A stretch of DNA of 64,000 bases, from positions 59,021 to 123,020 of the forward strand of contig CAZBMD010000001.1 in assembly GCA_964493325.1 (NCBI GenBank). Direction: 5' to 3'. The notes beneath the pieces were generated by a model, which worked only from the letters and a program-made list of their open reading frames with translations, was not told the origin of the DNA and made no database searches. The position numbers and the translations under genes are program-made. The stretch comes from an uncultured Pseudomonadota bacterium (lineage in GTDB: Bacteria > Babelota > Babeliae > Babelales > RVW-14). Below are positions 22,441 to 57,001 of the stretch, piece by piece. Position 1 is the first letter of the stretch. Every line of letters begins with the position of its first letter.

Positions 22441-23457
22441 ATGAGCGCATTTCGGGACAAAAAATCCATAATTAATAATTCATCCACAGATCCAAATAAA
22501 ATTTTGCCAATGACCTATCTGTGGGCACGAGAACACTACAAAAACGGCATTGCAAATAACTGGACACCTGAAGAAGTTTCAATGCAAAAAGACGTCGAAC
22601 AATGGAAAGCTCATGATGTGCTATCTCCAGAAGAACGTCGACTCATTTTGTGGAATCTTGGCTTCTTTTCAACTGCCGAGTCATTGACTGCAAATAACAT
22701 TGTCCTTGCAGTGTACAAGCATGTTACCAACCCTGAATGCAGACAATATCTTTTGCGCCAAGCATTTGAAGAAGCAGTTCACACAGACACTTTTATTTAC
22801 TGCTGTGATTCATTGGGCCTTGATCCTGATTATATTTTTAATATGTATCAAAGCATCCCATCAATCAAAGCAAAAGATGATTTTGTTGTAAATATGACGC
22901 TTTCTCTTTTTGATGACAACTTTAAAACCGATACAGCACAAAATATTCAAAAGTTCTTGCTCGATCTCATCGGATTTTACGTGATCATGGAAGGCATTTT
23001 CTTCTACGCAGGATTTGCAATGATGCTTGCCCTCAAGCGTCAAAAAAAGATGGTTGGCGTTGGTGAGCAATTTGAATACATTATGCGCGATGAAAGCATT
23101 CACCTTGCTTTTGGTTGCGATTTAATCAACACCATCAAGGCAGAAAATCCTGAAATTTGGGATCATGAATTTCAAGTTAAAGTTATTGAACTGATTAAAC
23201 AATCGGTTGAACTTGAACGCGCGTACGCTCACGACGCTTGCCCTCAAGGACTTTTGGGCATCAACGCGGAGCAGTTCTGTGTGTACGTTGAACACATGGC
23301 TGACCGCCGGCTTGAACGCATTGGCCTGCCAAAGGTTTATCATAAAGAAAATCCATTTCCATGGATGGGATTGATGACTGACCTTGTTAAAGAAAAGAAC
23401 TTTTTTGAAACACGCGTCACTGAATATCAGACCGCTGGATCGCTTAAGTGGGATTAG
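22441..23457 (+). CDS. nrdB: ribonucleotide reductase beta subunit, class Ic-like (Phe at radical-Tyr position)
   Basis: The ATG at 22441 follows aaggag. Ligand pattern is E80, E111-x-x-H114, E184, E218-x-x-H221, with F118 (ttt at 22792-22794) where class Ia/Ib have the radical Tyr. Confidence 0.9.
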   Translation: MSAFRDKKSIINNSSTDPNKILPMTYLWAREHYKNGIANNWTPEEVSMQKDVEQWKAHDVLSPEERRLILWNLGFFSTAESLTANNIVLAVYKHVTNPECRQYLLRQAFEEAVHTDTFIYCCDSLGLDPDYIFNMYQSIPSIKAKDDFVVNMTLSLFDDNFKTDTAQNIQKFLLDLIGFYVIMEGIFFYAGFAMMLALKRQKKMVGVGEQFEYIMRDESIHLAFGCDLINTIKAENPEIWDHEFQVKVIELIKQSVELERAYAHDACPQGLLGINAEQFCVYVEHMADRRLERIGLPKVYHKENPFPWMGLMTDLVKEKNFFETRVTEYQTAGSLKWD

Positions 23458-23483
23458 GTAGACTTGTTTAATTATTAATAAAT

Positions 23484-23525
23484 AAAAAATCCGCTGACGG
23501 GTTAAAGCATCAGCGGATTTTTTTA
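23484..23525. terminator. bidirectional intrinsic terminator
   Basis: A-run, then an 8-bp stem tccgctga/tcagcgga (23490-23497 / 23510-23517) with a 12-nt loop, then a T-run. Lies between the convergent nrdB and lipoprotein genes. Confidence 0.7.
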
Positions 23526-23556
23526 AACTTTAAAGCAAAAATTAATCAGCAATTAT

Positions 23557-24057
23557 TCAGTTATAGGCTATTCCATTTGCACAAAATTCACGCATAAAAT
23601 CTTCTAGAGAACTCAGCCCTTCAGAGAATTTATTGATTAAATAATCAATCGAAGATGGCTCATTATTAACTAATTCGTCGTTACCGTCTACATCTCCAAA
23701 CAACTCTCGTATTTCGTCGATATAGCGTTGCATTCCCTCTTCATCACCTTCATTCAATAATTTGAGCTCCAGCCCGCGAATATCTTGAAAATACTGTTGC
23801 ATTTGGCTAGAGCACGCAAGCTTGCGGAATTCATCAGACTGCTTCAATATCTGTAACTGTTGCTGCATCCTCTGTAAACATTCCTGCATTAGATCTAACG
23901 AGTCTCGATTATTATTTTCATCTAATGAGCTGACAATGTTGTATTCATCCAGATCTAACGTTTGATTCTTAAACTCTTGCATGGCATTTACACTTTGACA
24001 TCCTATTCCAGCAAGTACCAGCGCTGCAAGCGCTAGACTTTTTAATTTGATTTTCAT
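23557..24057 (-). CDS. hypothetical lipoprotein
   Basis: The ATG at 24057 gives MKIKLKSLALAALVLAGIGC with a lipobox L-A-G-I-G-C. The product is an acidic, Q-rich 166-aa protein. This is the cargo gene of the nrdB 3'-end duplication. Confidence 0.6.
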   Translation of the reverse strand: MKIKLKSLALAALVLAGIGCQSVNAMQEFKNQTLDLDEYNIVSSLDENNNRDSLDLMQECLQRMQQQLQILKQSDEFRKLACSSQMQQYFQDIRGLELKLLNEGDEEGMQRYIDEIRELFGDVDGNDELVNNEPSSIDYLINKFSEGLSSLEDFMREFCANGIAYN

Positions 24058-24156
24058 AAAAAAATCCTTTATGTAAAAAAATAAATATAACAACTATAGA
24101 ATAAGCAAAAAATCTACGGAGAGATTACTCGTTTTGTCTTTTTTGTCAAAAATATC

Positions 24157-24275
24157 GCCAAAAGGTTTAATCCTTTTTCGTTGATAGAATTGATGACTGA
24201 CCTTGTCAAAGAAAAATTTTTTTTGAAACAAGCGTTACTGAGTACCTGACTGCTAAATCGCTGAAGTGCGATTGG
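24157..24275 (+). pseudogene. decayed duplicate of the nrdB 3' end
   Basis: Collinear with nrdB 23328-23457. There is an 18-nt exact block attgatgactgaccttgt (23370-23387 = 24189-24206) and roughly 80% identity by eye over about 87 nt. An 11-nt deletion lies upstream of the exact block (nrdB tcataaagaaa, 23340-23350). A 1-nt deletion downstream of it breaks the frame, giving LMTDLVKEKFFLKQALLST*. Confidence 0.8.
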
Positions 24276-27347: not shown

Positions 27348-27422
27348 GGCCCCATCGTCTAACGGTTAGGACGCTGCCCTCTCAAGGCGGAAATAAGGGT
27401 TCGATTCCCCTTGGGGCCGCCA
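27348..27422 (+). tRNA. tRNA-Glu (anticodon CUC), CCA encoded
   Basis: Cloverleaf read by hand. Acceptor GGCCCCA/TGGGGCC, D arm GTCT-AACGGTTA-GGAC, anticodon stem CTGCC/GGCGG with loop CT-CTC-AA, T loop TTCGATT, then discriminator G and CCA. Confidence 0.9.
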
Positions 27423-31171: not shown

Positions 31172-31502
31172 CAAAAAAGCCTTTTATCTTGTGATTAAGC
31201 AACCCGGTAAGCACTACAAGCCAAACCAACAAATCCACACGGCAATCTTAGGGCTAATTTTTCATCAGGGCAAGCATTGATAATTTTATTTCCCAAACAA
31301 TCATAAACAAACAGAAATAAAAGACTTTTTAGTTATTTTATCCATGTATTGATTTTCAATTAATAATAAATTTAAGATAAAAGTGCAAAGTTAAAGGATA
31401 AAAAAATAGATCGATAATAATGATATTTGAAGTAATCAAATTTTAGACGGGAGACGTTTTCCAAAAACTAGGTGGAAAACATTGTTAGGGGGAGAATTTG
31501 TT

Positions 31503-32027
31503 ATGAATATGAAAAATAACGTAAAAATCGTAATTTTTTTAGGAGTGGCGATTGCGTTAGGAATCTCGCTAGCAAACTCTACAACCGGAACTAAAAAAGT
31601 GGCAAAAATGCCTATTCCAATTGCTAATGGTTGGTACACCCTTGGAGGTCTTTTTGACTTAATCAATACAAATAATCCTTCAAAAAATTCAAATTTCCTC
31701 GTCCTCGTCAATGGCTCCACCCAATCTGCTAGCGTAGCAGGGTTATCAACTCAATACATCATCGCAAACCGAGCTGCAATGGTACAGTTACTTGCCGATG
31801 AGGATCGCATCAACCAGTTAACAAGCGCTGGCAGCCTAACAACCATAACCAAACCGTACTACCAAAGACTATTGCTTTATTTCAAACTACCCAATTCAAC
31901 ATACAAATTTTACCTGAATGATCCTACTCCAGGGAAAGTAGTAAACACTGCCAGAGGAACTACCAACCCAGCCCTCAACATTATTAATAAGTGGGATTTT
32001 ACAAAATACATACCATCAATGCGGTAA
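31503..32027 (+). CDS. secreted protein, paralog A of a tandem pair
   Basis: The ATG at 31503 follows gggggag and a signal peptide is present. Shares YTLG.LF.LINTNN, NSNFLVL, MVQL.AD..RI.QLTS and TNPALNIINKWDF with the next gene. Confidence 0.65.
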   Translation: MNMKNNVKIVIFLGVAIALGISLANSTTGTKKVAKMPIPIANGWYTLGGLFDLINTNNPSKNSNFLVLVNGSTQSASVAGLSTQYIIANRAAMVQLLADEDRINQLTSAGSLTTITKPYYQRLLLYFKLPNSTYKFYLNDPTPGKVVNTARGTTNPALNIINKWDFTKYIPSMR

Positions 32028-32076
32028 TAAAAAGACTTAATTGAAAAATAGAGAATACACAGTAGGGGGAACGATT

Positions 32077-32616
32077 ATGAAGACTAACAAGATACTATTC
32101 GCTCTAGGACTTGGATGCTTATTCGCTGTATCGAGCATTTCAGAAGTCAGCACGGGAACACCAAAAACAATGAACAGACGATCAATAAAAAAGGGTACTA
32201 AAAAATTGCCTGTACCAGTTGCAGGCAAAGAATACACCCTGGGAGCTCTGTTTAATTTGATCAATACAAACAACGCATCAGGTAACTCAAATTTCTTAGT
32301 TCTTGATAAGAATGGTGTTTCACGCTCAGCATCAACTGTTGGCGTTTCATTGTCATACATTCAAGAAAACGCAGACACCATGGTTCAGCTTAATGCGGAT
32401 ACTGAGCGTATCAGTCAATTAACATCAAAAGGTGTATTGACAAGCAAAACTGCACCACAATATAGCAAAATACTACTCTATTTTGAGCTTGATGGCATAC
32501 CTGGTCGCTTGTATATTAATGACCCTGCACCAGGCAAAGTCATTAAAAGCTCTTTTAAAGAAACAAATCCAGCATTGAATATTATCAATAAATGGGATTT
32601 TAGTAAGTCATTCTAA
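32077..32616 (+). CDS. secreted protein, paralog B of a tandem pair
   Basis: The ATG at 32077 follows ggggga and a signal peptide is present. Same conserved blocks as 31503..32027. Confidence 0.65.
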   Translation: MKTNKILFALGLGCLFAVSSISEVSTGTPKTMNRRSIKKGTKKLPVPVAGKEYTLGALFNLINTNNASGNSNFLVLDKNGVSRSASTVGVSLSYIQENADTMVQLNADTERISQLTSKGVLTSKTAPQYSKILLYFELDGIPGRLYINDPAPGKVIKSSFKETNPALNIINKWDFSKSF

Positions 32617-39406: not shown

Positions 39407-39790
39407 GGGGGCGTAACGGTCTCGACGTGATATTGTGCGTTTTGAGAGCATGCCGAGTTTTGTATGTAATCTCGTAAAAAACATTCCAAAAACAAGTGCT
39501 AATACACTTAACATGAGCTTCGGCTCACAGCCTAGTCACGTATACGCTTAACGCTTAACGTACTAGCGCTCTTGTAAGAACAGCGTGTCTATCAGTTGGG
39601 CTTACTCGTATTAATCAGATAGAACATTCTTGAAAGAATTTTTGGTAGGGTATCAAGATTGTATCACAGAACCGACTCTTATTTAGATCCTGCTCTTGGG
39701 AGCGAATAAGAAAATAATCAAGAGCTAAGCATGTAGCGCTTTTAGCGGTCAGTTTTACGGACATGGGTTCGACTCCCATCGCCTCCACCA
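39407..39790 (+). ncRNA. ssrA: tmRNA (SsrA)
   Basis: 5' GGGGGCGTAACGGTCTCGACG and 3' GGGTTCGACTCCCATCGCCTCCACCA. The acceptor pairing includes G3:U. Inferred tag reading frame is 39498-39551. Confidence 0.9.
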
Positions 39791-40010: not shown

Positions 40011-40430
40011 ATGTGCAATAAAATGCTTGCAGTAATTGTTATCAGCGTATTTCAAATAACAATTCAGCTTTCTGGAATGATTCCTTTTTCATTCAGCGAC
40101 ATTCAAACAAACCCATTTGAAAGTAATAAAGAAATTTATCAACCATGGAATGAAGTGAACCTTGATAAAGAATTTACAAATAACCTGATTTCTACATCAG
40201 AAGAACTCATCAATTTTGTGAGCCAAAATGATTCATTAATTAATGAATTTAAACAGTTTGTTCTCCTGACTAAACTCAATCAACTCAACAATACGCAGCA
40301 TGAAGTAAAATTACATCCGGACTGGCAGGAAGTCTTTAATAACCTTCCCTGTGATATAAAGAATGCGCTTTCAGATGACATCATCAACGAATGCTCTCTA
40401 ACAGACAGTGAAACTGAAGATTATGAATAA
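40011..40430 (+). CDS. small secreted protein sharing a C-terminal module with the downstream WD40 protein
   Basis: 139 aa with a signal peptide. The FKQFVLLTKLN...LHPDWQEVFNNLP...DIIN block aligns with the C-terminus of the next ORF. Its stop overlaps the next ATG (ATGAATAA). Confidence 0.6.
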   Translation: MCNKMLAVIVISVFQITIQLSGMIPFSFSDIQTNPFESNKEIYQPWNEVNLDKEFTNNLISTSEELINFVSQNDSLINEFKQFVLLTKLNQLNNTQHEVKLHPDWQEVFNNLPCDIKNALSDDIINECSLTDSETEDYE

Positions 40431-41916
40431 AAAATTAGCTGCAATAATCATAACGCTTTTGTTTCATTCTATTTCTCTCATAGGAAACCTACGCGCAGGC
40501 GTAAACTCATTGCAAAATCTCGCTTTTCAAAAAATCATAAACGAGCTGCGCAATACAAAAGTAAACTTGAACGAAGAAATTCCCTATAGCCTTAGAGATG
40601 AAAATTATTCCTATAACAAGAATCTTGATAGCATACTTCTTTCACAACAAAGCTATTTATTTGATAGATTAGTAAAACCTTTGCATACCTATTTTCCAAT
40701 TCTTGAAGAGCCGATCTGTGCTACACATATTGCCGGAATAGCCTCTCCCAACAACATTGATAAATCAGATATGATTCATTCGCTGATTCAGATAAAAAAC
40801 GGTGAATTAAAAGGCTATCTTGTTTCAGCATCTCATGAAAATTCTATCAAGGTCTTGAATCCTCATACTGGTGAATGCATAAGAACTCTTGAGGGACACA
40901 CTGGTGCAATAACTTCAGTCATTGAACTTGTTTATTTGGATGCCAATATTTCATCAAAAATTAGACAAAATTATATTGCATCAGCATCTCGTGACAATAC
41001 CATCAGAGTTTGGGATATTTTAACAGGTGAATGTATCCGTATTTTTGAAGCAGAAGATGCCTTCGTTATTATCGAACTAAAAAATGGCACTATTGCATCT
41101 GCAGGAAAAGAAATAAAGATCTGGGATACTTCTATAGGTGAGTGTATTGAGATTCTAAGAGAACACTCCGATAGAATTAGCTCCTTAGCTCAACTAAATA
41201 ATGATAATTTTCTCGCATCAGCCTCATTTGATGGCACAATCAAAATCTGGGATCTTTCTACAGGGCAATACATACGTATGCTTAATCATAATTACGACAG
41301 AATTCAACATTGGGCACTTTCTGTCATTCAGCTCAATAATGGCAATCTTGCATCTACATCAAGTGATAAAACTATTAAAATTTGGGACCCATTTACAGGT
41401 GAATGCATCCGCACACTAGAGGGACATGACGATTCGGTAACCTGCGTCATCCAACTCAGAAACGGTAATCTTATATCTGGATCTACCGATGGAACTATCA
41501 AAATCTGGGATCTTTCTAGAAACAAGGAAGATGAATGTCTAGCAACGCTAGACGGGCATACTAGCACAATAAAGACATTAGTTCAGCTTAATGACGGAAA
41601 TCTTGTTTCTGGATCGTACGATCGTACCATTAAACTATGGCATCTCTATTCCCCAGACATGCAAAAATTCAGTCTTAAGCAATATATTCTTCTGCTGCAT
41701 TTAAATAATTACAAAAACAATTATGAAACAATATCGCTTCATAACGAATGGTTAAAAATTTTTCAAACCCTACCTGAGAGCTGTCAGAACAAATTCCGTG
41801 CAATCATTCAAAATCAAGAAGACGATGATTATCAAGTAGGCTCAAAAAGAAAATATCTTAATGGTGAGACTCATTACCTATTAACCAAAAACAAAAACTT
41901 AAAATATGAATTATAG
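40423..41916 (+). CDS. WD40 beta-propeller protein (7 repeats) with signal peptide
   Basis: The ATG at 40423 gives MNKKLAAIIITLLFHSISLIG. Seven repeats have the form GH..-x-V..L...-SAS.D.TIK(I/V)WD..TGECIRTL. Confidence 0.8.
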   Translation: MNKKLAAIIITLLFHSISLIGNLRAGVNSLQNLAFQKIINELRNTKVNLNEEIPYSLRDENYSYNKNLDSILLSQQSYLFDRLVKPLHTYFPILEEPICATHIAGIASPNNIDKSDMIHSLIQIKNGELKGYLVSASHENSIKVLNPHTGECIRTLEGHTGAITSVIELVYLDANISSKIRQNYIASASRDNTIRVWDILTGECIRIFEAEDAFVIIELKNGTIASAGKEIKIWDTSIGECIEILREHSDRISSLAQLNNDNFLASASFDGTIKIWDLSTGQYIRMLNHNYDRIQHWALSVIQLNNGNLASTSSDKTIKIWDPFTGECIRTLEGHDDSVTCVIQLRNGNLISGSTDGTIKIWDLSRNKEDECLATLDGHTSTIKTLVQLNDGNLVSGSYDRTIKLWHLYSPDMQKFSLKQYILLLHLNNYKNNYETISLHNEWLKIFQTLPESCQNKFRAIIQNQEDDDYQVGSKRKYLNGETHYLLTKNKNLKYEL

Positions 41917-42338: not shown

Positions 42339-42944
42339 TTATTTGTTCCACGGCATGTGTGCTAGCAATAAAGCCATTCCACACCAACCAGTTATCCCTG
42401 CAAACATTAATCCCATTCCGACAAATCCAGGCAATATATAAAATGCAGCATTAACAAAAGAGCCTAAAATTGTTCCCGAAAAAGCCAGAAATCCAGCTGC
42501 AAGTTGGGTTTGGCGATCAAGAGGCAATATGTTAGATCCACTTTTTTTAATATAAAAACCAGCACGCTCCCACGCTGCAATTCCGCCATCAAGAGAAGCT
42601 ATATCTAGCGAAGAATCTTGATTTAATAATTTTAAAGAAGCATCTAAACTTCGCCTTCCAGATTGACAATGAATTACAATTCGCCCCAATTTTGATGGTA
42701 ATTTTTCATGAGAAATTTCTGATAGAGGAATAAGAATTGACCCCTCTATACATTTAGATCGATACTCAGCTGGTTCACGAACATCAACTAGCAATACTTC
42801 GTTTTTATCAAGAAGTTTTTTTAAATCTTCTACTGAAATAGTTTTTACCATTGAATTACAATATATTTTTGATTGCTGTTCTGTAATAATACATGATATG
42901 TGCATCAAACAAAAAATAACAATCAACACTCTTTTTAAAAACAT
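42339..42944 (-). CDS. rhodanese-domain protein with C-terminal membrane domain (YgaP-like)
   Basis: Signal/anchor, a rhodanese fold with active-site loop HCQSGRRS, and two C-terminal TM helices. Confidence 0.75.
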   Translation of the reverse strand: MFLKRVLIVIFCLMHISCIITEQQSKIYCNSMVKTISVEDLKKLLDKNEVLLVDVREPAEYRSKCIEGSILIPLSEISHEKLPSKLGRIVIHCQSGRRSLDASLKLLNQDSSLDIASLDGGIAAWERAGFYIKKSGSNILPLDRQTQLAAGFLAFSGTILGSFVNAAFYILPGFVGMGLMFAGITGWCGMALLLAHMPWNK

Positions 42945-43061: not shown

Positions 43062-43160
43062 AATTAACTCAAATCACCACGAAACATAAACGAAACAGAG
43101 ATTTTGAGTGCAACTGTTTTGTCTTCTTCAATCACGCATTAAATAGAGCCACCAGGAGCA
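43062..43160 (-). pseudogene. decayed duplicate of the dapF 3' end
   Basis: The terminal 23 nt (43062-43084) are identical to dapF 44303-44325, covering codons FRGDLS, the stop and 2 nt beyond. A further 75 nt or so align at roughly 50-70% identity by eye (for example ttgaagaaga, ggctc) with frame disruptions. Confidence 0.7.
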
Positions 43161-43260
43161 CACATCTCCTTGCAAAACAAACCTGAATGCGATATTTTAC
43201 AATAAAATTAAAATAGAATTGATAGCCGTAATAAATCAAACAAATAATGAAAGAAAAGTA

Positions 43261-44301
43261 ATGAAAAATAATCGCATATTATGCGCCTTAATGTTGTTAT
43301 TTGGATTGATCAGTTCATCGCATGGAGCTTTTATTCCGTTAATAAACGAGATACAGCAAGTTCATGCTCCCACAATTATCGAAGCATCACCAGGAAACGT
43401 TCTTATTGCTTTTTATGGCGGACAAAAGGTAAACAATCCTAACAACAAAGGAACAAATGATTGCTCTATTTGGTTAACAAGTTTCTGCCTCCAAACAGGT
43501 TGGTGGGATTCTCCTCTACAAGTTGCATCAGGTATCGAGGTATTTGAAAAATCAATAGCATGCTGGGACCCTGTTTTGTGCAAACTAGCTTCTGGAAAAA
43601 TCTATCTTTTTTACAAAATAGGCACAGATACCGCATCGTGGACAGGCTTTGTAAAATCTTCAGATGATAACGGACTTACCTGGTCAAAACCGCAATGTCT
43701 TGCTCAATTTGACGTTACAGGACCTCATAAATGCAAGCCTGTTATTACTCAGGACGCGCTCCTTTGTCCCGCAAGCAGAGCAAGTGAAGGTTTTCGAGCA
43801 GGATGTGTTGAGCGAGCAACTCATGACCTTGAGGTATGGGAAGTCAGCAACCTGATAACAAGCGACCAGGAAAAAGCCTTTTTGCAGCAGCCAACAATCT
43901 TTCAAACGAAAAATAACACCATTCACCTTATTTTTCGATCACGTAACTTGCCCTGCCTGTACACCTCGTCATATAAAAATGGAGGATGTACACATCCTAT
44001 AGAGACCAACCTTGCCGGCTCAGACTCAAGCCTTGATACACTCACACTTGATGATGGACGAGTATTACTTGCGTATAATGATATTCAAGGAAGCGGTCGC
44101 CACCGACTTGTTTTGATGCAGTGCCAGAACAACGAATGCACGCAATGGAAGCAGGTGAAAGTTATTGCAGAATCAAATGATTCATCAAAAATATTTTGCT
44201 ACCCATCAATGATTCAAGACTCTCATGGAATGATACACCTTGTGTATATTCAAGACTACGAAAAAATCTGTTATGAAATTATAGATCCAAGCAGCCTTTG
44301 A
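43261..44301 (+). CDS. BNR/Asp-box sialidase-family protein (exo-alpha-sialidase-like), secreted
   Basis: The ATG at 43261 is followed by a signal peptide. HAPTIIEASPGNVLIAFYGG, CWDPVL, LFYKIG and the Asp-box SSDDNGLTW match the BNR_2 sialidase-like family. Confidence 0.75.
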   Translation: MKNNRILCALMLLFGLISSSHGAFIPLINEIQQVHAPTIIEASPGNVLIAFYGGQKVNNPNNKGTNDCSIWLTSFCLQTGWWDSPLQVASGIEVFEKSIACWDPVLCKLASGKIYLFYKIGTDTASWTGFVKSSDDNGLTWSKPQCLAQFDVTGPHKCKPVITQDALLCPASRASEGFRAGCVERATHDLEVWEVSNLITSDQEKAFLQQPTIFQTKNNTIHLIFRSRNLPCLYTSSYKNGGCTHPIETNLAGSDSSLDTLTLDDGRVLLAYNDIQGSGRHRLVLMQCQNNECTQWKQVKVIAESNDSSKIFCYPSMIQDSHGMIHLVYIQDYEKICYEIIDPSSL

Positions 44302-44302
44302 T

Positions 44303-44325
44303 AATTAACTCAAATCACCACGAAA
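44303..44325. repeat. 23-nt exact direct repeat (copy 2; copy 1 at 43062-43084)
   Basis: AATTAACTCAAATCACCACGAAA occurs at 43062-43084 and 44303-44325, bracketing the sialidase-like gene. The flanking bases differ on both sides. Confidence 0.9.
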
Positions 44326-45135
44326 AGCAATTGCTGCAGAAGCCTTGAGAATAACATTGCCATCTTCTTCAACTGTACACTCAACTGAGCCCCCAAGCAT
44401 GGTAATAAAAAAAGTCTGATTGATTTCAACTTTACCAAGTTGCGCCAAAAGACCAGCTACTGCCGCAGCGCCAGAACTGCACGCAAGCGTTATACCGCAG
44501 CCACGCTCATACACAAGCACTTGAAAATGAGTAGAATCAATTTGCCAAACAAATTCAACATTAGTTTTACAAGGGAAGCTGACATGCTGTTCAATGACAC
44601 GTCCATACTGCGTTAGCCATGCCAATTCTACTTGCTGAAAAACAATAAAATGAGGGTTGCCTATTTCGACGGTGTAGCCAGAAAAATTACCTACTGACGT
44701 TTTAATTGAATGTTCTATACCAACGGAAGGACTCCCGACATTGGTCAAAATTTGAATTTCAACTCCCGGCTTTTTTTCATCAACAACGGTGCACGTAACT
44801 TCTCGCTGACCAAATTTAATAACAAAATTTTTGGGGAAATTGTACGTCGTGTACAAGTGAAACGCAACACAGCGCAGTCCATTCAAACAGTTTTCTGCAG
44901 ATGTTCCATCGCAATTAAAAACAAGCATCTCGGGTAAACCAAGCGTCGGATTGCTTTTGACAACCAAAACTCCATCAGCTCCCACTCCGTAGTGCCTATC
45001 GCAAATTTTTTGTACTTGCTCGGTAAAGCCAACGGCAGCAAGATCACTTTCTAAATAAAAAGATGCTCGCTTGTACCAATCAAATAAAATAAAATCGTTA
45101 CCAAGCGACTGATATTTAAAAAAATTATTGAGCAT
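44305..45135 (-). CDS. dapF: diaminopimelate epimerase
   Basis: The ATG at 45135 gives MLNNFFKYQSLGNDFILFD. Has GNPHFIVF and the catalytic Cys regions NCDGTSAENCLNGLRC and ERGCGITLACSSGAAA. Confidence 0.9.
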   Translation of the reverse strand: MLNNFFKYQSLGNDFILFDWYKRASFYLESDLAAVGFTEQVQKICDRHYGVGADGVLVVKSNPTLGLPEMLVFNCDGTSAENCLNGLRCVAFHLYTTYNFPKNFVIKFGQREVTCTVVDEKKPGVEIQILTNVGSPSVGIEHSIKTSVGNFSGYTVEIGNPHFIVFQQVELAWLTQYGRVIEQHVSFPCKTNVEFVWQIDSTHFQVLVYERGCGITLACSSGAAAVAGLLAQLGKVEINQTFFITMLGGSVECTVEEDGNVILKASAAIAFRGDLS

Positions 45136-46114
45136 GATACTCACGAGAAAAATTGGGTTGCTGATTTGTATTTGAGAGCTTTTCTGAATTTTGGTGTAAC
45201 CCAAAAACTTTGCTCAGATATGCGCGACCGGAGTCTGCAAGGATAACAACAACTACATCAGAAGGTTGTAATTTTTTGCAATACTGCAGAGCAACATGCA
45301 TAACAGCTCCGCTACTTATCCCCATCAATAGTCCATGCTTTTGAGCAAGCGTACGCGTCATTGCAAACGCATCATCATCGGAAATTGGCAAAATTTCATC
45401 AACCACGGACTGGTCAAACGTATCTGAAATAACATCTATACCAAGACCCTCAACATTGTAAGCTTTTGGCTCTTTGCTTGAATACATGGATGTTGCCGCG
45501 TCAATACCAATAATTTTTACAGCAGGATTTTGCTCTTTAAGATAACGACCAATGCCCGACATGGTACCACAGCTACCAGCGCCCATAAAAACATGAGTCA
45601 CCGTGCCGCTTGTTTGTTGCCAAATTTCAGGTCCAGTTGTTGAGTAGTGCGCAAGCGGATTGGATTTATTAAAATACTGATTTGGCATAAACGCACCAGG
45701 TATGGTTTGAGCAAGACGCACGGCAAGCGTATGATAATTTGAAGGGTCGTCATGAGAGTCGGTATTTGGGCACACATGAACTTCGGCACCGTAGGCACGC
45801 AAAACAGCTACTTTTTCGCTCGATGTTCGATCGGGCACCGTGATGATAACTCGATAACCTTTGACCTTACCAATCATCGAAAGAGCTATTCCCTGATTGC
45901 CCGATGATGCTTCAACAATAGTTCCACCTGGCTTAAGTTTGCCATTGCGCTCTGCTTCTTCAATCATAAAAAGTGCACAACGGTCTTTGATGCTTCCTCC
46001 TGGATTGAGGTATTCCAGTTTAGCAAGAAGCAACGGCGCTGTTCCTAAATCAAGGCGTACAATAGGAGTATTACCAATCGCCTCAAGAAAATTTTTGTAT
46101 GTATTTTGTGTCAT
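45125..46114 (-). CDS. cysK: PLP-dependent cysteine synthase family protein
   Basis: LEYLNPGGSIKDRCA (PLP Lys), EASSGNQG and GAGSCGTMSG. Overlaps the dapF start by 11 nt. Confidence 0.85.
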   Translation of the reverse strand: MTQNTYKNFLEAIGNTPIVRLDLGTAPLLLAKLEYLNPGGSIKDRCALFMIEEAERNGKLKPGGTIVEASSGNQGIALSMIGKVKGYRVIITVPDRTSSEKVAVLRAYGAEVHVCPNTDSHDDPSNYHTLAVRLAQTIPGAFMPNQYFNKSNPLAHYSTTGPEIWQQTSGTVTHVFMGAGSCGTMSGIGRYLKEQNPAVKIIGIDAATSMYSSKEPKAYNVEGLGIDVISDTFDQSVVDEILPISDDDAFAMTRTLAQKHGLLMGISSGAVMHVALQYCKKLQPSDVVVVILADSGRAYLSKVFGLHQNSEKLSNTNQQPNFSREYHAQ

Positions 46115-50938: not shown

Positions 50939-51919
50939 CTACTGCCGAGACAAGATTGCCAGCAAAAGACCCATTGGTTTGTAATATATTGCACACTTAG
51001 AACTCACAGATATATCAAGTATGGAGTGTATTGCTTGGTTGCAAAACTGCGCCGATAGTGCAAAAAAAAGCTTCATGTCTGTGGCATTTAGACTCTTAAT
51101 ATCTCTACCTTCGAAATTTTTAAATATTACAGCCCTTAGCTCAGTCAATTTTTTGATAAGAAAATTCGCATCTTCTTCATCGACGATTGATCCAAGGGTA
51201 TTTTTTATTTTTTGAGTCAAAGTCTCACAATCATAAAAATACAGTCCACAAGTAATTGCCTCATCCGAAATCATCAAATCCTTGGTATTAATATCATTAA
51301 AACTGTTATAACAAATTTGAAAAACATTGCTCAGACCTAGAAATCTTCTAGCCTGTGAATCACTGTCTTCAGGATGAAATAAAAGAATTTTATGAACTGC
51401 TTGTTGATAAAATAACTCCGGAGCATCATTAACCTCATGTTGATTTGCTATCTCATCTCTTAAGTGAGTAAGTTTCGTAGCGATTTGCTCTTGAATATTT
51501 TCTGAGCACATTGAATTATCAAGGATTTGGTTAATTATTCTTATTAAGACGTCTTTTGACTCAAAAGGCTCACATAGAGTTTGCATAAGCACAGGCGAAT
51601 AATTTGACGGCGAAAAACCTAATTTTCCCCTAAAAAGGCTTTGTACAAGCAAAAGTGAATGTCCTGGTTTTCCCTTAAAACCTGCAATCATCCTTTCTGC
51701 AGAACTAAAAAATCCTGCAAGAGTCAAAAGTCTGCTGTCTTGCGTTTTAAACTGATTCAAGAATATTTGATCAAAAAGCAATACATCTTCAATTGTATTT
51801 TCAACCTCTATTTCATCACTCTCATCAGAGAAATATTCATCATCTGAACTCCCGGCATAAACAACTGAAAGTGATTGAAAACATGTTACAAATATGAGTA
51901 ACGATAAAGATTTTTTCAT
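50939..51919 (-). CDS. secreted protein, tandem paralog 1 (acidic SSDDEYFSDESDE N-terminus)
   Basis: 326 aa with a signal peptide. The N-terminal 90 aa or so and the C-terminal 45 aa or so are conserved with 51938..52894. The core is divergent. Confidence 0.65.
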   Translation of the reverse strand: MKKSLSLLIFVTCFQSLSVVYAGSSDDEYFSDESDEIEVENTIEDVLLFDQIFLNQFKTQDSRLLTLAGFFSSAERMIAGFKGKPGHSLLLVQSLFRGKLGFSPSNYSPVLMQTLCEPFESKDVLIRIINQILDNSMCSENIQEQIATKLTHLRDEIANQHEVNDAPELFYQQAVHKILLFHPEDSDSQARRFLGLSNVFQICYNSFNDINTKDLMISDEAITCGLYFYDCETLTQKIKNTLGSIVDEEDANFLIKKLTELRAVIFKNFEGRDIKSLNATDMKLFFALSAQFCNQAIHSILDISVSSKCAIYYKPMGLLLAILSRQ

Positions 51920-51937
51920 TACCTCTCCTTTTCCTTG

Positions 51938-52894
51938 CTACGGTGACGGCAACATTGCGAATAAATTACCAACTGGCTTGAAGTATCTTACACACTTAGA
52001 ACCCACAGATATATCAAGTATAGAGCGTATTGCTTGATCACAAAACTGTGCCGACAGCTCTATAAATCTTTTTATATCTCTGGCATTAAGGATTTCCACA
52101 TTTCTATTTTCAAAATCTTTAAATACCAAGCGCCTGAATTCATCCAATTTTTTAATAAGAAGATTTATATCTTCTGCGCCCACGATTGGCTCAAGGATAT
52201 TTTTTATCTTTAAAGCTAAAGCGTTACTATCATAAATAAACAGTCCTTGATTAAAGGCTCTATCAACGATAATCCAATCGTTGGTATCTGTATTTTTAAG
52301 CATAATGGAATATTCATCAAAAAAATTACCAAGACACAGCAACCTTCCTGCATCTGTCTGGTAGCGTTCTATTAAACACTCTGGATATAATAAAAGAATT
52401 TCACGAACCGCTCGCCGATAAAATATAGTAAACATATCTTCTGGCAAACAGTCCGTCTCTATTTTATCTTTTAATGCTCCAAGCTGCTCAATCATTCTTT
52501 CTCGAGAATCATCTGAGCAAATAGCAACATCACAAACCTCTTTGATGACGTTAACAAGAAATTCTTTGTTCCATACAAGATCGCACAATTTAAATATAAT
52601 AAATTTATAGAGATTGCCAGTACCACAGGGTATTTCAGCAGAAATTTTACTGTACTCTGCAAACATTTCTGCTGAAGAGCTAAAAAATCCTGCAAGAAAC
52701 AAAAGTCTACTGTCTTGCGTTGTAAACTGACTCAAGAATATTTGATCAAAAAGTAATGTATCTTTGGTTGTGTCATCAACCTCTATTTCATCACTCTCAT
52801 CAGAGAAATATTCATCATCTGAACTTCCGGCATAAACAAGTGAAAGTGATGGAAGACTTACAGTTAAGGCCAGCAGTAATAATAATTTCTTCAT
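51938..52894 (-). CDS. secreted protein, tandem paralog 2
   Basis: The ATG at 52894 gives MKKLLLLLALTVSLPSLSLVYAGSSDDEYFSDESDEIEV. A 50-nt exact block is shared with paralog 1 (52776-52825 = 51801-51850). Confidence 0.65.
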   Translation of the reverse strand: MKKLLLLLALTVSLPSLSLVYAGSSDDEYFSDESDEIEVDDTTKDTLLFDQIFLSQFTTQDSRLLFLAGFFSSSAEMFAEYSKISAEIPCGTGNLYKFIIFKLCDLVWNKEFLVNVIKEVCDVAICSDDSRERMIEQLGALKDKIETDCLPEDMFTIFYRRAVREILLLYPECLIERYQTDAGRLLCLGNFFDEYSIMLKNTDTNDWIIVDRAFNQGLFIYDSNALALKIKNILEPIVGAEDINLLIKKLDEFRRLVFKDFENRNVEILNARDIKRFIELSAQFCDQAIRSILDISVGSKCVRYFKPVGNLFAMLPSP

Positions 52895-53025
52895 TACTTT
52901 TCCTTTATTAAAAGGCCATCTCAACTTTCTTCATCATGTGAACAATAGCATGTATGGGCGCATCCTGCAATTTACACACCGATCCCATTGATCTTTAACC
53001 CTACTGCAGTACATTAAAGTTTAAG

Positions 53026-55255: not shown

Positions 55256-56113
55256 ATGAAGCGTCACCTATGTTTTGTATATCTGATCACCTCACTACTT
55301 GTGTCAACATTACACAGCTGGAATGGCGAGCAATATGACAAAGCATCAGATTGTCAATTCAAAGAAGGATTGCAATTGCTGGAAGATATACAATTGCAAG
55401 GCAATGAGCGTGTCTTAGACGTTGGATGCGGCACGTGCAGGCTCGCAGCATACATTGCACAAAAATGCGTCCCTAATGGAAGTGTTGTGGCGATTGATAA
55501 CAACGAAAGTATGATTCAAAAATCTCTAGAAAAACAAGAACAATCACCCATACCAAATCTTCAGATTGAACTTAAAGATGCGTGTGAATTAGATTACCAT
55601 GAAGAATTTGATCTGATTATATCAGTTTTTTGTTTGCACTGGATTCAAGACTTAGAAAGCATGGAGCAAGCAATACAAGGAATTGCGCGCAGTTTAAAAC
55701 CTGGTGGTAAATTTGTTGCAATTTTTAACATTCATGAAACAGATGATGGAAAAATACCAGTTATGACGACAGCAAAAACTTTTGCTACAATTCTCAGCCC
55801 ATTTTCATCCAAACTCAAAGCTGGGTTAGGAAATGAACTCACCCTTAACCAATACAGAACACTCTTAAACAATGCGAAACTCTCTGCCGAAGTTTTTTCT
55901 GCTGCAATGAAAGAAAGAGAAAGTATATCAGAGCAAGAACAAAAAGAACATCTGCTAGCACTCCCTCTCGGTGAAGCCGTCCCTCCCCTTCTTCAACCAA
56001 TATTTCTCTGGATAACGCTTAACACTTTAAAATACTTTGGATTTCAAAACGCTGATGGAACTTATGGCGATAACATGCCGCGCGGCTTTATTATTGCTGA
56101 AAAAATAGAGTAA
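55256..56113 (+). CDS. class I SAM-dependent methyltransferase with signal peptide (tandem paralog 1)
   Basis: Motif I is VLDVGCGTCRLAAYIA. The N-terminus MKRHLCFVYLITSLLVSTLHS is signal-like. Confidence 0.75.
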   Translation: MKRHLCFVYLITSLLVSTLHSWNGEQYDKASDCQFKEGLQLLEDIQLQGNERVLDVGCGTCRLAAYIAQKCVPNGSVVAIDNNESMIQKSLEKQEQSPIPNLQIELKDACELDYHEEFDLIISVFCLHWIQDLESMEQAIQGIARSLKPGGKFVAIFNIHETDDGKIPVMTTAKTFATILSPFSSKLKAGLGNELTLNQYRTLLNNAKLSAEVFSAAMKERESISEQEQKEHLLALPLGEAVPPLLQPIFLWITLNTLKYFGFQNADGTYGDNMPRGFIIAEKIE

Positions 56114-56146
56114 AAGAGCACAATATTTATCGAGAAGGAGACGAGT

Positions 56147-57001
56147 ATGAAGAGTCACCTATTTTCTGTATTTTTGATTTTCTCACTATTCCTAACCCCT
56201 TTACAATGCTGGAACGGTGAACAATATGATAGAGCATCTGATGCGCAATTTGCAGCAGGATTACAACTTATCCAGCAAGCACACCTAAAAGGCGATGAAA
56301 GAGTTCTTGATCTGGGATGCGGCACATGCAGGCTAGCAGCACACATTGCACAAAACTGCGTTCCTAACGGAAGCGTTGTTGCAATTGATAATAGCGAAAG
56401 CATGATTCAAAAATCTCTAGAAAAACAAGCAAATTCACCTATAGATAATCTTACTATAGAGCTCAGAGATGCTTGTAAACTTGATTATCACAAAGAATTT
56501 GATGTAGTCGTATCAGTCTTCTGCCTTCATTGGATTCAAGAGATAGAAAGCATGCAGCGAGCAATACAGGGAATTGCTCAAAGCTTAAAACCTGGAGGCA
56601 AGTTTTTTGCAGTCTTTAATCTACAAAGCACAGACGATGGATTAATACCACTTATCGGAGAAATGAAAAAAATTATACAATCTAATGCATGGTCTAATTG
56701 TTATGAAGGCAAAGTAGTCTTAGGTAATGATATTCCTCCCTATACTTATCAACAAATGCTAGAACGTTCAGGCTTTGAGGCGACCGTAACTACTTTTATA
56801 CCAGCAGTACCCAATCGAACTGAACAACAGCAAAAAGCCTCTCTTTTGGCTATCCCTTTAGGACAGGCAATTCCTTTGAACCGTCAGGAAGATTTTCTTA
56901 ATGAGGCACTTGCCATGTTTGAGAAAGCAGGAGCAAAAAATGAAGATGGTACGTATCGATTTATTCTTCCCTGTGGCATGATTACCGCCCTCAAAAAATA
57001 G
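56147..57001 (+). CDS. class I SAM-dependent methyltransferase with signal peptide (tandem paralog 2)
   Basis: Motif I is VLDLGCGTCRLAAHIA. Highly similar to 55256..56113 over the first 170 aa or so. Confidence 0.75.
   Translation: MKSHLFSVFLIFSLFLTPLQCWNGEQYDRASDAQFAAGLQLIQQAHLKGDERVLDLGCGTCRLAAHIAQNCVPNGSVVAIDNSESMIQKSLEKQANSPIDNLTIELRDACKLDYHKEFDVVVSVFCLHWIQEIESMQRAIQGIAQSLKPGGKFFAVFNLQSTDDGLIPLIGEMKKIIQSNAWSNCYEGKVVLGNDIPPYTYQQMLERSGFEATVTTFIPAVPNRTEQQQKASLLAIPLGQAIPLNRQEDFLNEALAMFEKAGAKNEDGTYRFILPCGMITALKK

Follow-up and report, generated by a model that had tools for sequence, protein, structure and literature searches.

The dapF locus and its flanking repeat

We analyzed a 64-kb stretch of DNA (the window) encoding a DapF protein whose closest relatives among species-representative genomes belong to MAGs of candidate division TM6/Dependentiae (Babeliales), at 55% identity or less, which assigns the window to a Dependentiae genome. 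The local order on the minus strand is a PALP enzyme gene (45125-46114), dapF, and a rhodanese/YgaP-like gene, with a plus-strand BNR_2 gene, hereafter the cargo, located between the last two. The features of this locus, and of a parallel case at nrdB, are as follows.

42339..42944, minus strand: rhodanese/YgaP-like membrane protein gene, the native downstream neighbor of dapF (PF00581 and PF11127; directly after dapF in contig L019)
42945..43061, minus strand: spacer from the relic stop to the rhodanese start (just 23 nt in the relative with an empty site)
43062..43152, minus strand: the relic, a dapF 3'-end copy reduced from ~111 nt to 91 nt and in frame, with one nonsense codon (self-BLAST, tblastn, and contig comparison)
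43062..43084, no strand assigned: relic end copy of the exact 23-mer (exact-match search; TTC for TTT in contig L036)
43153..43260, plus strand: region upstream of the cargo gene, conserved between species and containing a sigma-70-like site (TTGATA-18-AATAAT, 43219-43248)
43261..44301, plus strand: cargo gene for a putative GH33 sialidase-like six-bladed beta-propeller, 346 aa, with a signal peptide (PF13088, AlphaFold model, Foldseek, and Asp-box)
44303..44325, no strand assigned: functional dapF end copy of the exact 23-mer (exact-match search)
44303..44413, minus strand: functional copy of the duplicated unit, i.e., the last 36 dapF codons, the stop codon, and 2 nt, 111 nt in all (boundary at the FFI codons)
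44305..45135, minus strand: dapF (diaminopimelate epimerase), 276 aa, the intact target (PF01678; TIGR00652 DapF equivalog, 180 bits; identical protein P0010 on several contigs)
23350..24273, plus strand: parallel case, with one copy of the nrdB 3' end at 23350-23455 and a second at 24169-24273 (81% over 106 nt, E = 6e-21)

The 64-kb window contained exactly two copies of the 23-mer AATTAACTCAAATCACCACGAAA (43062-43084 and 44303-44325), which ranked third-longest among the exact direct repeats found there. We failed to find any further match in the window with up to 3 mismatches, and shuffled sequences were expected to contain 0. The earlier note had described the 23-mer as bracketing a sialidase-like gene and as consisting of the last six codons of dapF (FRGDLS), the TAA stop codon, and 2 nt beyond, and both descriptions were borne out by the window sequence. 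The resulting 1,241-nt unit holds a single gene (43261-44301), which is convergent with dapF and, also as described, ends 1 nt before the 23-mer with its TGA stop codon at 44299-44301.

A BLAST comparison of the window with itself aligned 43062-43154 with 44303-44395 at 67% identity over 93 nt without gaps (E = 2.7e-6). The similarity that had been noticed by eye beyond the exact block is therefore real, but it ends at 43152 and not at 43160. Identity outside the 23-mer was 37/68 (54%), reaching 43152/44393. By our own estimate, a run of 23 matches amid 54% identity has a chance of ~2e-5, so the sharp identity step at the edge of the 23-mer, which had also been pointed out before, is real.

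A chance origin of the dapF-end repeat was ruled out by the shuffles, the self-BLAST result (E = 2.7e-6), a tblastn alignment of the relic (E = 8e-6), and a 109-nt repeat in conspecific contigs (E ~1e-9). The two BLAST values of 2.7e-6 and ~1e-9 also answer the earlier concern that the extended similarity might lack statistical significance. A second concern, that the 23-mer might be a common dispersed repeat of the REP or MITE-like kind, was ruled out by its copy number of two in the window and by metagenome matches at the level of chance: a degenerate 20-mer with 18 fixed bases gave 11 single matches, about the number expected by chance, none of which was DapF-related. The viral contigs scanned contained no 23-mer.

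An integron gene cassette was rejected: self-comparison detected no inverted repeat within 43062-44325, where a cassette end would have an imperfect one of the attC type, and no integrase was found among the window ORFs of at least 110 aa. A noncoding RNA or tRNA target was rejected as well, with just a subthreshold CRISPR-DR6 match at 43196-43225 and with the tRNA-Glu and tmRNA genes located elsewhere in the window.

The cargo protein carries a signal peptide and matches PF13088 (BNR_2) with E = 2.7e-40, in agreement with the earlier description of a BNR/sialidase-like product, and neither a PDB match by sequence nor an NCBIfam match was found. Its AlphaFold model has a pLDDT of 85, and the top Foldseek matches were bacterial and human sialidases, the best being the sialidase of Porphyromonas gingivalis (TMq 0.78, ~13% identity). 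The model has the six blades of a beta-propeller, and the Asp-box SxDxGxTW is invariant, as are residues R226, R228, R282, Y314, E41, and D67. The catalytic set of GH33 enzymes comprises an Arg triad with the FRIP arginine, a Tyr/Glu nucleophile pair, and an Asp acid/base. The N-terminal motif of the cargo reads HAPTI by eye rather than RIP, and the FRIP-type arginine appears to have been replaced. The cargo thus shares the six-bladed fold, the Asp-box, and the signal peptide with GH33 bacterial sialidases such as P. gingivalis PG_0352 (8gn6/8t24), but differs from them by its ~13% identity and the apparent replacement of this arginine. Judging from the model, it is a putative secreted sialidase-like propeller. 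A viral origin of the cargo was rejected, as the viral contigs contained no relatives of it.

Empty site, duplicated unit, and decay of the relic

The dapF-rhodanese interval, for which a comparison among relatives had been suggested, was found in its uninterrupted form in the Logan contig L019, which encodes a DapF 75% identical to that of the window. There, 23 nt separate the dapF stop codon from the rhodanese ATG on the same strand, and the cargo and the second copy of the dapF end are both absent. This empty site indicates that the state in the window arose by insertion, with the order dapF, insert, relic, and rhodanese gene. The relic occupies the former position of the native dapF end, adjoining the rhodanese gene. 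The insertion at the dapF 3' end and the proposed succession of target gene, convergent cargo, cargo promoter, and relic are supported by this comparison.

Four contigs (L015-L018) encode a DapF identical to that of the window and are considered conspecific. A 1.35-Mb contig encodes this DapF, and the species occurs in samples 3300055001, SRR26425201, 3300043411, SRR35185575, and 3300035182. The cargo lies at the same place in 4/4 of them, and the relic is present in both contigs that reach it (L015 and L016). In these two, the relic exceeds that of the window by 68 nt, giving a direct repeat of 109 nt with 66% identity (E ~1e-9). By tblastn, the relic aligns to DapF residues 242-276 (E = 8e-6). 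The duplicated unit measures 109-111 nt in the conspecific contigs, corresponding to 44303-44413 in the window, with the homology starting at the FFI(T/A)M codons and ending at the stop codon. We found no significant homology on the relic side upstream of the FFI codons, and a longer duplication extending to the ACS catalytic motif was rejected as not significant.

On the dapF strand, the relic in the window reads ...GGSI, a stop, CVIEEDKTVALKISVSFMFRGDLS, and a second stop, versus ...GGSVECTVEEDGNVILKASAAIAFRGDLS and a stop in dapF. It is in frame and has a single nonsense codon, so the frame disruption described earlier was not found. A hand count of the substitutions between the relic and dapF gave 10/7/14 at codon positions 1/2/3, with five codons differing only synonymously; as far as the sequence goes, this is the pattern to be expected between a constrained functional copy and a freely decaying one. 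The relic also varies within the species. A 68-nt deletion at its 5' edge (43152|43153) is shared by the window and the conspecific contig L036, but not by L015 or L016. L036 has a TTT-to-TTC SNP inside the relic 23-mer, leaving 22/23 matches to the window, and lacks the cargo coding sequence. The breakpoint of L036 coincides with the start codon of the cargo rather than with either repeat, and the variant may be a cargo replacement, a rearrangement, or a chimera.

A sister species is represented by L008, a 2,291-nt Logan contig from ERR1356746 encoding a cargo protein 77% identical to that of the window. Its order is a dapF-like fragment, the same upstream noncoding region, the cargo, an extra gene for a 281-aa coiled-coil protein, and a convergent dapF end. 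Base-for-base comparison of L008 with L015 from the relic to the promoter gave 88/103 matches upstream of the cargo and 40/49 in the relic. At the 4-fold degenerate sites of the cargo, 44/117 differ between the two species, a raw divergence of 0.38, i.e., 62% identity versus the 88/103 of the upstream region. The shared junction of relic and cargo promoter in L008 indicates one event that predates the split of both species.

The L008 relic reads TLLFFITMLSGSVECTVEE and has FFITML, as does the resident gene. It is 83% identical to the functional dapF of the window and 72% identical to that of L019, which places the origin of the relic in the dapF of this clade rather than in that of a foreign lineage. 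The relic in the window is a more decayed copy of the same native relic, with its nonsense codon and its 68-nt deletion. The proposal of an element-borne, foreign dapF fragment, and with it the idea that the relic would be closer to the dapF of another lineage, was not supported by these values.

The exact 23-nt block and the most likely course of events

At the neutral divergence observed here, 23 unconstrained nucleotides would carry several changes by our own estimate. With a 4-fold divergence of 0.38, an original att core would no longer be exact, and the 23-mer must have been either renewed or protected. Renewal is seen directly in L008, where the first 26 nt of the contig equal the last 26 nt, so that the relic agrees exactly with the functional copy along a stretch of at least 26 nt, located 48-73 nt upstream of the stop codon; the same stretch has 17/26 matches between the two copies in the window. 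The contig ends short of both the functional copy upstream of this 26-nt patch and the terminal part of the relic, and 31-mer assembly logic suggests an exact repeat of ~34 nt in the L008 genome. The different placement of the exact patch in the two species fits short gene-conversion tracts or unequal exchange, not a fixed recombination site. The 23-mer in the window is most likely a gene-conversion patch as well, possibly protected in addition by the adjoining upstream region of the rhodanese gene. For the window, we infer gene conversion by extrapolation from L008; RecA-type conversion would be inefficient at today's flanking identity of 54%, so the patch would have to be old or protected by selection.

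Taken together, we consider it likely that the locus records an old, one-off insertion of the long-target-duplication type in a Dependentiae (TM6) genome, probably joined independently of a recombinase, with the 23-mer being a conversion patch rather than a recombination core. Ancestrally, the rhodanese gene would have directly followed dapF on the same strand. A segment carrying the secreted sialidase-like gene, and possibly the second gene still found in L008, would have been joined right after the dapF stop codon, with the last ~111 nt of dapF placed on both sides of the insert. The copy joined to the gene body would have kept dapF intact, and the other, beside the rhodanese gene, would be a dead relic. 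Two routes may have led to this: either incoming DNA was anchored by its dapF homology and joined illegitimately ~111 nt upstream of the dapF end, or a circle with a short dapF 3' fragment was integrated by a single crossover. The functional dapF end may be a self-copy or may have come in with the donor DNA. The relic would then have decayed by a nonsense codon, substitutions at ~46% of sites, and the 68-nt deletion in the window strain, with short patches rehomogenized against the functional copy by gene conversion. A point against a one-off insertion is that two such events in 64 kb exceed what a rare accident would predict.

It is also conceivable, although unlikely, that the same old insertion took place but that selection rather than conversion keeps the 23-mer exact, with the last ~20 nt of dapF belonging to the upstream control region of the rhodanese gene in the relic and being under coding constraint in the functional copy. 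The short distance in the empty site would fit this, since the rhodanese gene starts 23 nt after dapF in L019 and a promoter or coupling signal must then sit in the dapF end. In the more distant L035, the rhodanese gene is no longer beside dapF, yet 16/20 positions in its upstream sequence still match the dapF end (p ~0.01), but this p value is weak and comes from simple shuffles, and no such remnant was found in L031-L034. Conservation between species is likewise unusually high at the opposite relic edge (40/49). However, no convincing sigma-70-like site overlaps the 23-mer, and L036 has its SNP within it. The functional copy in L008 agrees with that in the window over the same 20 nt, for which we estimate p ~0.16 given six codons and the 4-fold divergence; conservation of this extent is unremarkable for six codons.

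Parallel loci, mobility, and known systems

The nrdB locus has the same architecture as the dapF locus, as had been noted before and as both self-comparison and the sequence bear out. Its repeats, 23350-23455 and 24169-24273, are 81% identical over 106 nt (E = 6e-21), with the identity evenly spread and no sharp core. The nrdB gene belongs to PF00268, and the cargo is a single convergent ORF on the minus strand (23557-24057), which encodes a secreted protein of no family. The nrdB relic is in frame, and its stop codon is changed to TGG. In a third case, in L005, a ~105-nt repeat of a divergent promoter region flanks a single gene of 367 aa. There are thus three such scars in ~0.3 Mb of Dependentiae-like sequence, those of dapF and nrdB in the window and one in L005, and no motif common to the three duplicated units was detected. 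We regard it as quite unlikely that these scars reflect a lineage-typical, recombinase-free route by which Dependentiae gain single genes, mostly for secreted proteins, leaving gene-end duplications of ~105-130 nt whose copies still exchange, and by which the units may loop out, amplify, and pass between genomes.

Very unlikely, in our view, is a recombinase-free mobile cassette, in which a circle of one repeat and the cargo would be looped out by homologous recombination between the dapF-end copies and would re-enter related genomes by single-crossover (Campbell-type) recombination with their dapF end, restoring the arrangement. Such a life cycle has been proposed for restriction-modification units by Furuta et al. 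(PMC2853133), and the architecture is exactly what single-crossover integration gives. The renewed patches of identity show that the repeats still interact, and the cargo set differs between species, with the extra 281-aa gene in L008. One conspecific contig, L036, is without the cargo coding sequence, but its break lies at the cargo start codon and outside the repeats, and the cargo is at the same place in 4/4 conspecific contigs. Orthology of the relic-promoter junction in the two species is consistent with a single event passed on vertically, and repeats that are now 66% identical make a poor substrate for homologous recombination. The cargo itself was rejected as a roaming cassette: its homologues, at ~50% identity, are found in conserved TamB-RuvA-GT1 surroundings and have no repeats on either side. 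Among the window ORFs of at least 110 aa, representing 64 kb of the genome, Pfam scans gave no match to an integrase, transposase, or resolvase domain, in accordance with the earlier statement that the window has no recombinase. The cassette system at the 3' ends of housekeeping genes that had been envisaged in the earlier note found no backing, given the lack of a recombinase in these scans and of a shared motif, the absence of further 23-mer copies from the window and, beyond chance level, from the metagenome and viral scans, and the cargo homologues without flanking repeats. Nothing points to present-day mobility of the dapF unit.

Integrative islands use the att sites of tyrosine integrases at the 3' ends of tRNA, tmRNA, or protein genes, so that repeats of the target end bracket the insert and the target remains intact. 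The dapF case shares the repeats of the target 3' end and the intact target gene with them, but differs in having no integrase in the window, a native-like arm, and an exact patch whose position varies between species; the tmRNA and tRNA genes of the window are not involved in the insert. It is highly improbable that the locus is the remnant of such an island, in which case the attP would have carried a dapF-like arm, the 23-mer would be the att core, and everything else, the integrase included, would have been deleted later. The step from 23/23 to 54% identity, the insertion point at a conserved gene's 3' end, which many integrative elements share, and the genuine insertion shown by the empty site are all accounted for in this way. 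However, no recombinase domain was found in the window ORFs of at least 110 aa, the relic arm is not foreign, and the nrdB case spreads its 81% identity over 106 nt with no sharp core and no common motif. As for the 23-mer itself, the earlier reading of it as an att core was not sustained: a core is identical at both junctions in the window (23/23), but it is not fixed and reused, with the exact patch elsewhere in the sister species and a SNP in the relic 23-mer of L036, and a 23-nt fossil core from an event older than the species split at 0.38 should have several substitutions.

For the old insertion that we favor, the closest known counterpart is the insertion with long target duplication (Nobusato et al. 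2000, Gene 259:99; PMC2853133). The published examples are recent events that involve restriction-modification genes and whose repeats show 90-100% identity between strains. In the survey of Furuta, Abe & Kobayashi 2010 (PMC2853133), the repeats range from 46 to ~420 bp, often span the stop codon, and have no mobility genes. The dapF locus shares flanking direct repeats of tens to hundreds of base pairs, both of which match a target present once in the empty-site genome, the lack of a linked transposase or integrase, the small insert, stop-spanning repeats, and an intact target gene. Its repeats exceed 30 bp and are both derived from the target, and within the scope of 64 kb no mobility gene is linked to it and the repeat is not multicopy. 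It differs in its secreted sialidase-like cargo, its Dependentiae host, its age (66% identical repeats), and its patchy rehomogenization. The cargo is of the BNR_2 type and not a restriction-modification system, a property that defines the published surveys rather than the rearrangement itself. The dapF case is, accordingly, a further example of an already known recombinase-free insertion scar, with a cargo type, phylum, and age that differ from those of the published cases.

The same topology results from the displacement of 3' (C-terminal) ends by homology-facilitated illegitimate recombination proposed for Rhs, CDI, and T6SS genes (Jackson et al. 2009; Kirchberger et al. 2017, PMC5361080), in which the conserved part of the gene serves as the anchor for incoming DNA. 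Shared with the dapF locus are a complete 3' end followed by downstream gene(s), an orphan former 3' end further downstream, and no dedicated recombinase; the window likewise has an intact gene with a complete 3' end and an orphaned older 3' end downstream. In those systems, however, the displaced ends are different toxin domains, arranged in arrays by repeated events under diversifying selection, whereas at dapF the two ends are versions of one housekeeping sequence and one event is seen.

In the insertion favored here, an obligate intracellular bacterium with a reduced genome gained a gene of the host-interaction type without visible mobile-element machinery. The dapF scar shows how such an insertion ages by decay, deletion, and patchy homogenization, and it cautions against taking every sharp exact block next to a diverged repeat for an att core. 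Should whole-genome scans show ~110-nt scars to be frequent in Dependentiae, gene gains in the phylum could usefully be dated and counted by them, and insertion with long target duplication would reach beyond restriction-modification genes.

The dapF end was rejected as a general hot spot for insertion, as L001-L007 contain no dapF-end relics. Two other arrangements were seen near dapF in these sequences. In L006, a transporter gene overlapping the dapF end has undergone an ordinary tandem duplication, and the 108-nt repeats near dapF in L005 are palindromic, MITE-like elements.

Variation at the dapF insertion within and between species

We found a 68-nt deletion polymorphism among conspecific contigs in the relic, the decayed copy of the dapF 3′ end (43062-43152), beside which lies the sialidase-like cargo gene (43261-44301, +) inserted behind dapF. 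The deletion (window 43152|43153 versus positions 7000-7067 of the conspecific contig L015) takes out the 5′ edge of the relic together with 47 nt upstream of it, and it is carried by the window and by L036, but not by L015 or a further conspecific contig, L016. L036 (JGI 3300035182), whose rhodanese is 99% identical, retains the relic as well as the region upstream of the cargo. To the left of the start codon of the cargo, the contig's positions 1-130 (corresponding to window ~43258-43270) show no relation to any window sequence, and this unrelated stretch terminates in the apparent 3′ end of another gene (...FMSFLSFVGAILWLR, stop). The cargo may have been lost or replaced in this variant, the region may have been rearranged, or the contig may be a chimera.

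Upstream of the cargo, the non-coding DNA of the window (43153-43260) and that of L008 (27-196), a contig of a sister species, were 85% identical, compared with only 62% identity at 4-fold sites between the same two species, and constraint appears to act on this region. We saw no conserved ORF in it, and no Rfam match exceeded the threshold, the CRISPR-DR6 match at 43196-43225 being sub-threshold (28.5 bits versus 39). On the other side of the cargo, L008 has an additional gene between the cargo and dapF (1322-2167), encoding a 281-aa signal-peptide/TM coiled-coil protein. In the window, the cargo protein has 2 aa fewer at the C terminus, and its gene stops at a distance of 3 nt from the stop of dapF. 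This suggests that the window lineage has undergone a secondary deletion, or that the insertion in L008 came later.

The rhodanese gene and its upstream sequence

In L035, a contig of a more distant relative in which dapF is not adjacent, TTTCCACGTAATTTGAGTTA lies upstream of the rhodanese orthologue (~216-235) and matches the last 20 nt of dapF at 16/20 positions (p~0.01). The matching stretch could be either a very small, older relic or a control element that has been conserved. Homologues of the rhodanese/YgaP protein (42339-42944) that are 63-73% identical, and that have no N-terminal signal segment, were found in records labelled Coxiellaceae and Rickettsiales endosymbiont of Paramecium. 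Such conservation across phyla of intracellular bacteria is unusually high, and it may result from horizontal transfer.

Further single-gene insertions

The nrdB 3′ end is also present in two copies (23350-23455 and 24169-24273; 81% over 106 nt), which enclose one convergent secreted ORF without a family (23557-24057). The nrdB relic has kept its reading frame, with the stop changed to TGG, and borders on a BamA-like gene at that gene's 3′ end. By eye, the homology may reach ~25 nt farther in the upstream direction if an 11-nt indel is bridged.

We noted a third insertion of one gene, with ~100 nt of its target duplicated, in L005. This contig belongs to a MAG with the label 'uncultured Pseudomonadota', and the DapF proteins of that MAG and of the window share 44% identity. 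Here, a direct repeat of ~105 nt (3968-4073 and 5100-5190; 83% identity), consisting of a divergent promoter region with both start codons, encloses a single 367-aa coiled-coil/TM gene that appears to start from the duplicated 'MST' start. In the same MAG, dapF is flanked on either side by palindromic MITE-like elements of ~105 nt (L005 7807-7911 and 10280-10441; ACGTCATCCTCGCGAAAGCGGGGATCCAG ... reverse complement), which have no relation to the dapF-end insertion of the window.

Other genes of the window

Genes for tmRNA and tRNA are classic targets of islands; no repeats flanking either of those listed below were found in the window self-comparison.

5505-7952, Omp85/BamA-like gene
24282-27233, Omp85/BamA-like gene
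27348-27422, tRNA-Glu(CTC)
39407-39790, tmRNA gene, tag ANTLNMSFGSQPSHVYA

The window also encodes eukaryote-like WD40 and ankyrin proteins, and it contains tandem paralogue pairs (50939-52924, 55256-57001, 31482-32616 and 40408-41916, coordinates listed jointly with the WD40/ankyrin proteins), namely two ORFs of ~327 aa without a family, two class I methyltransferases with 75% nucleotide identity, and two ORFs of ~185 aa.
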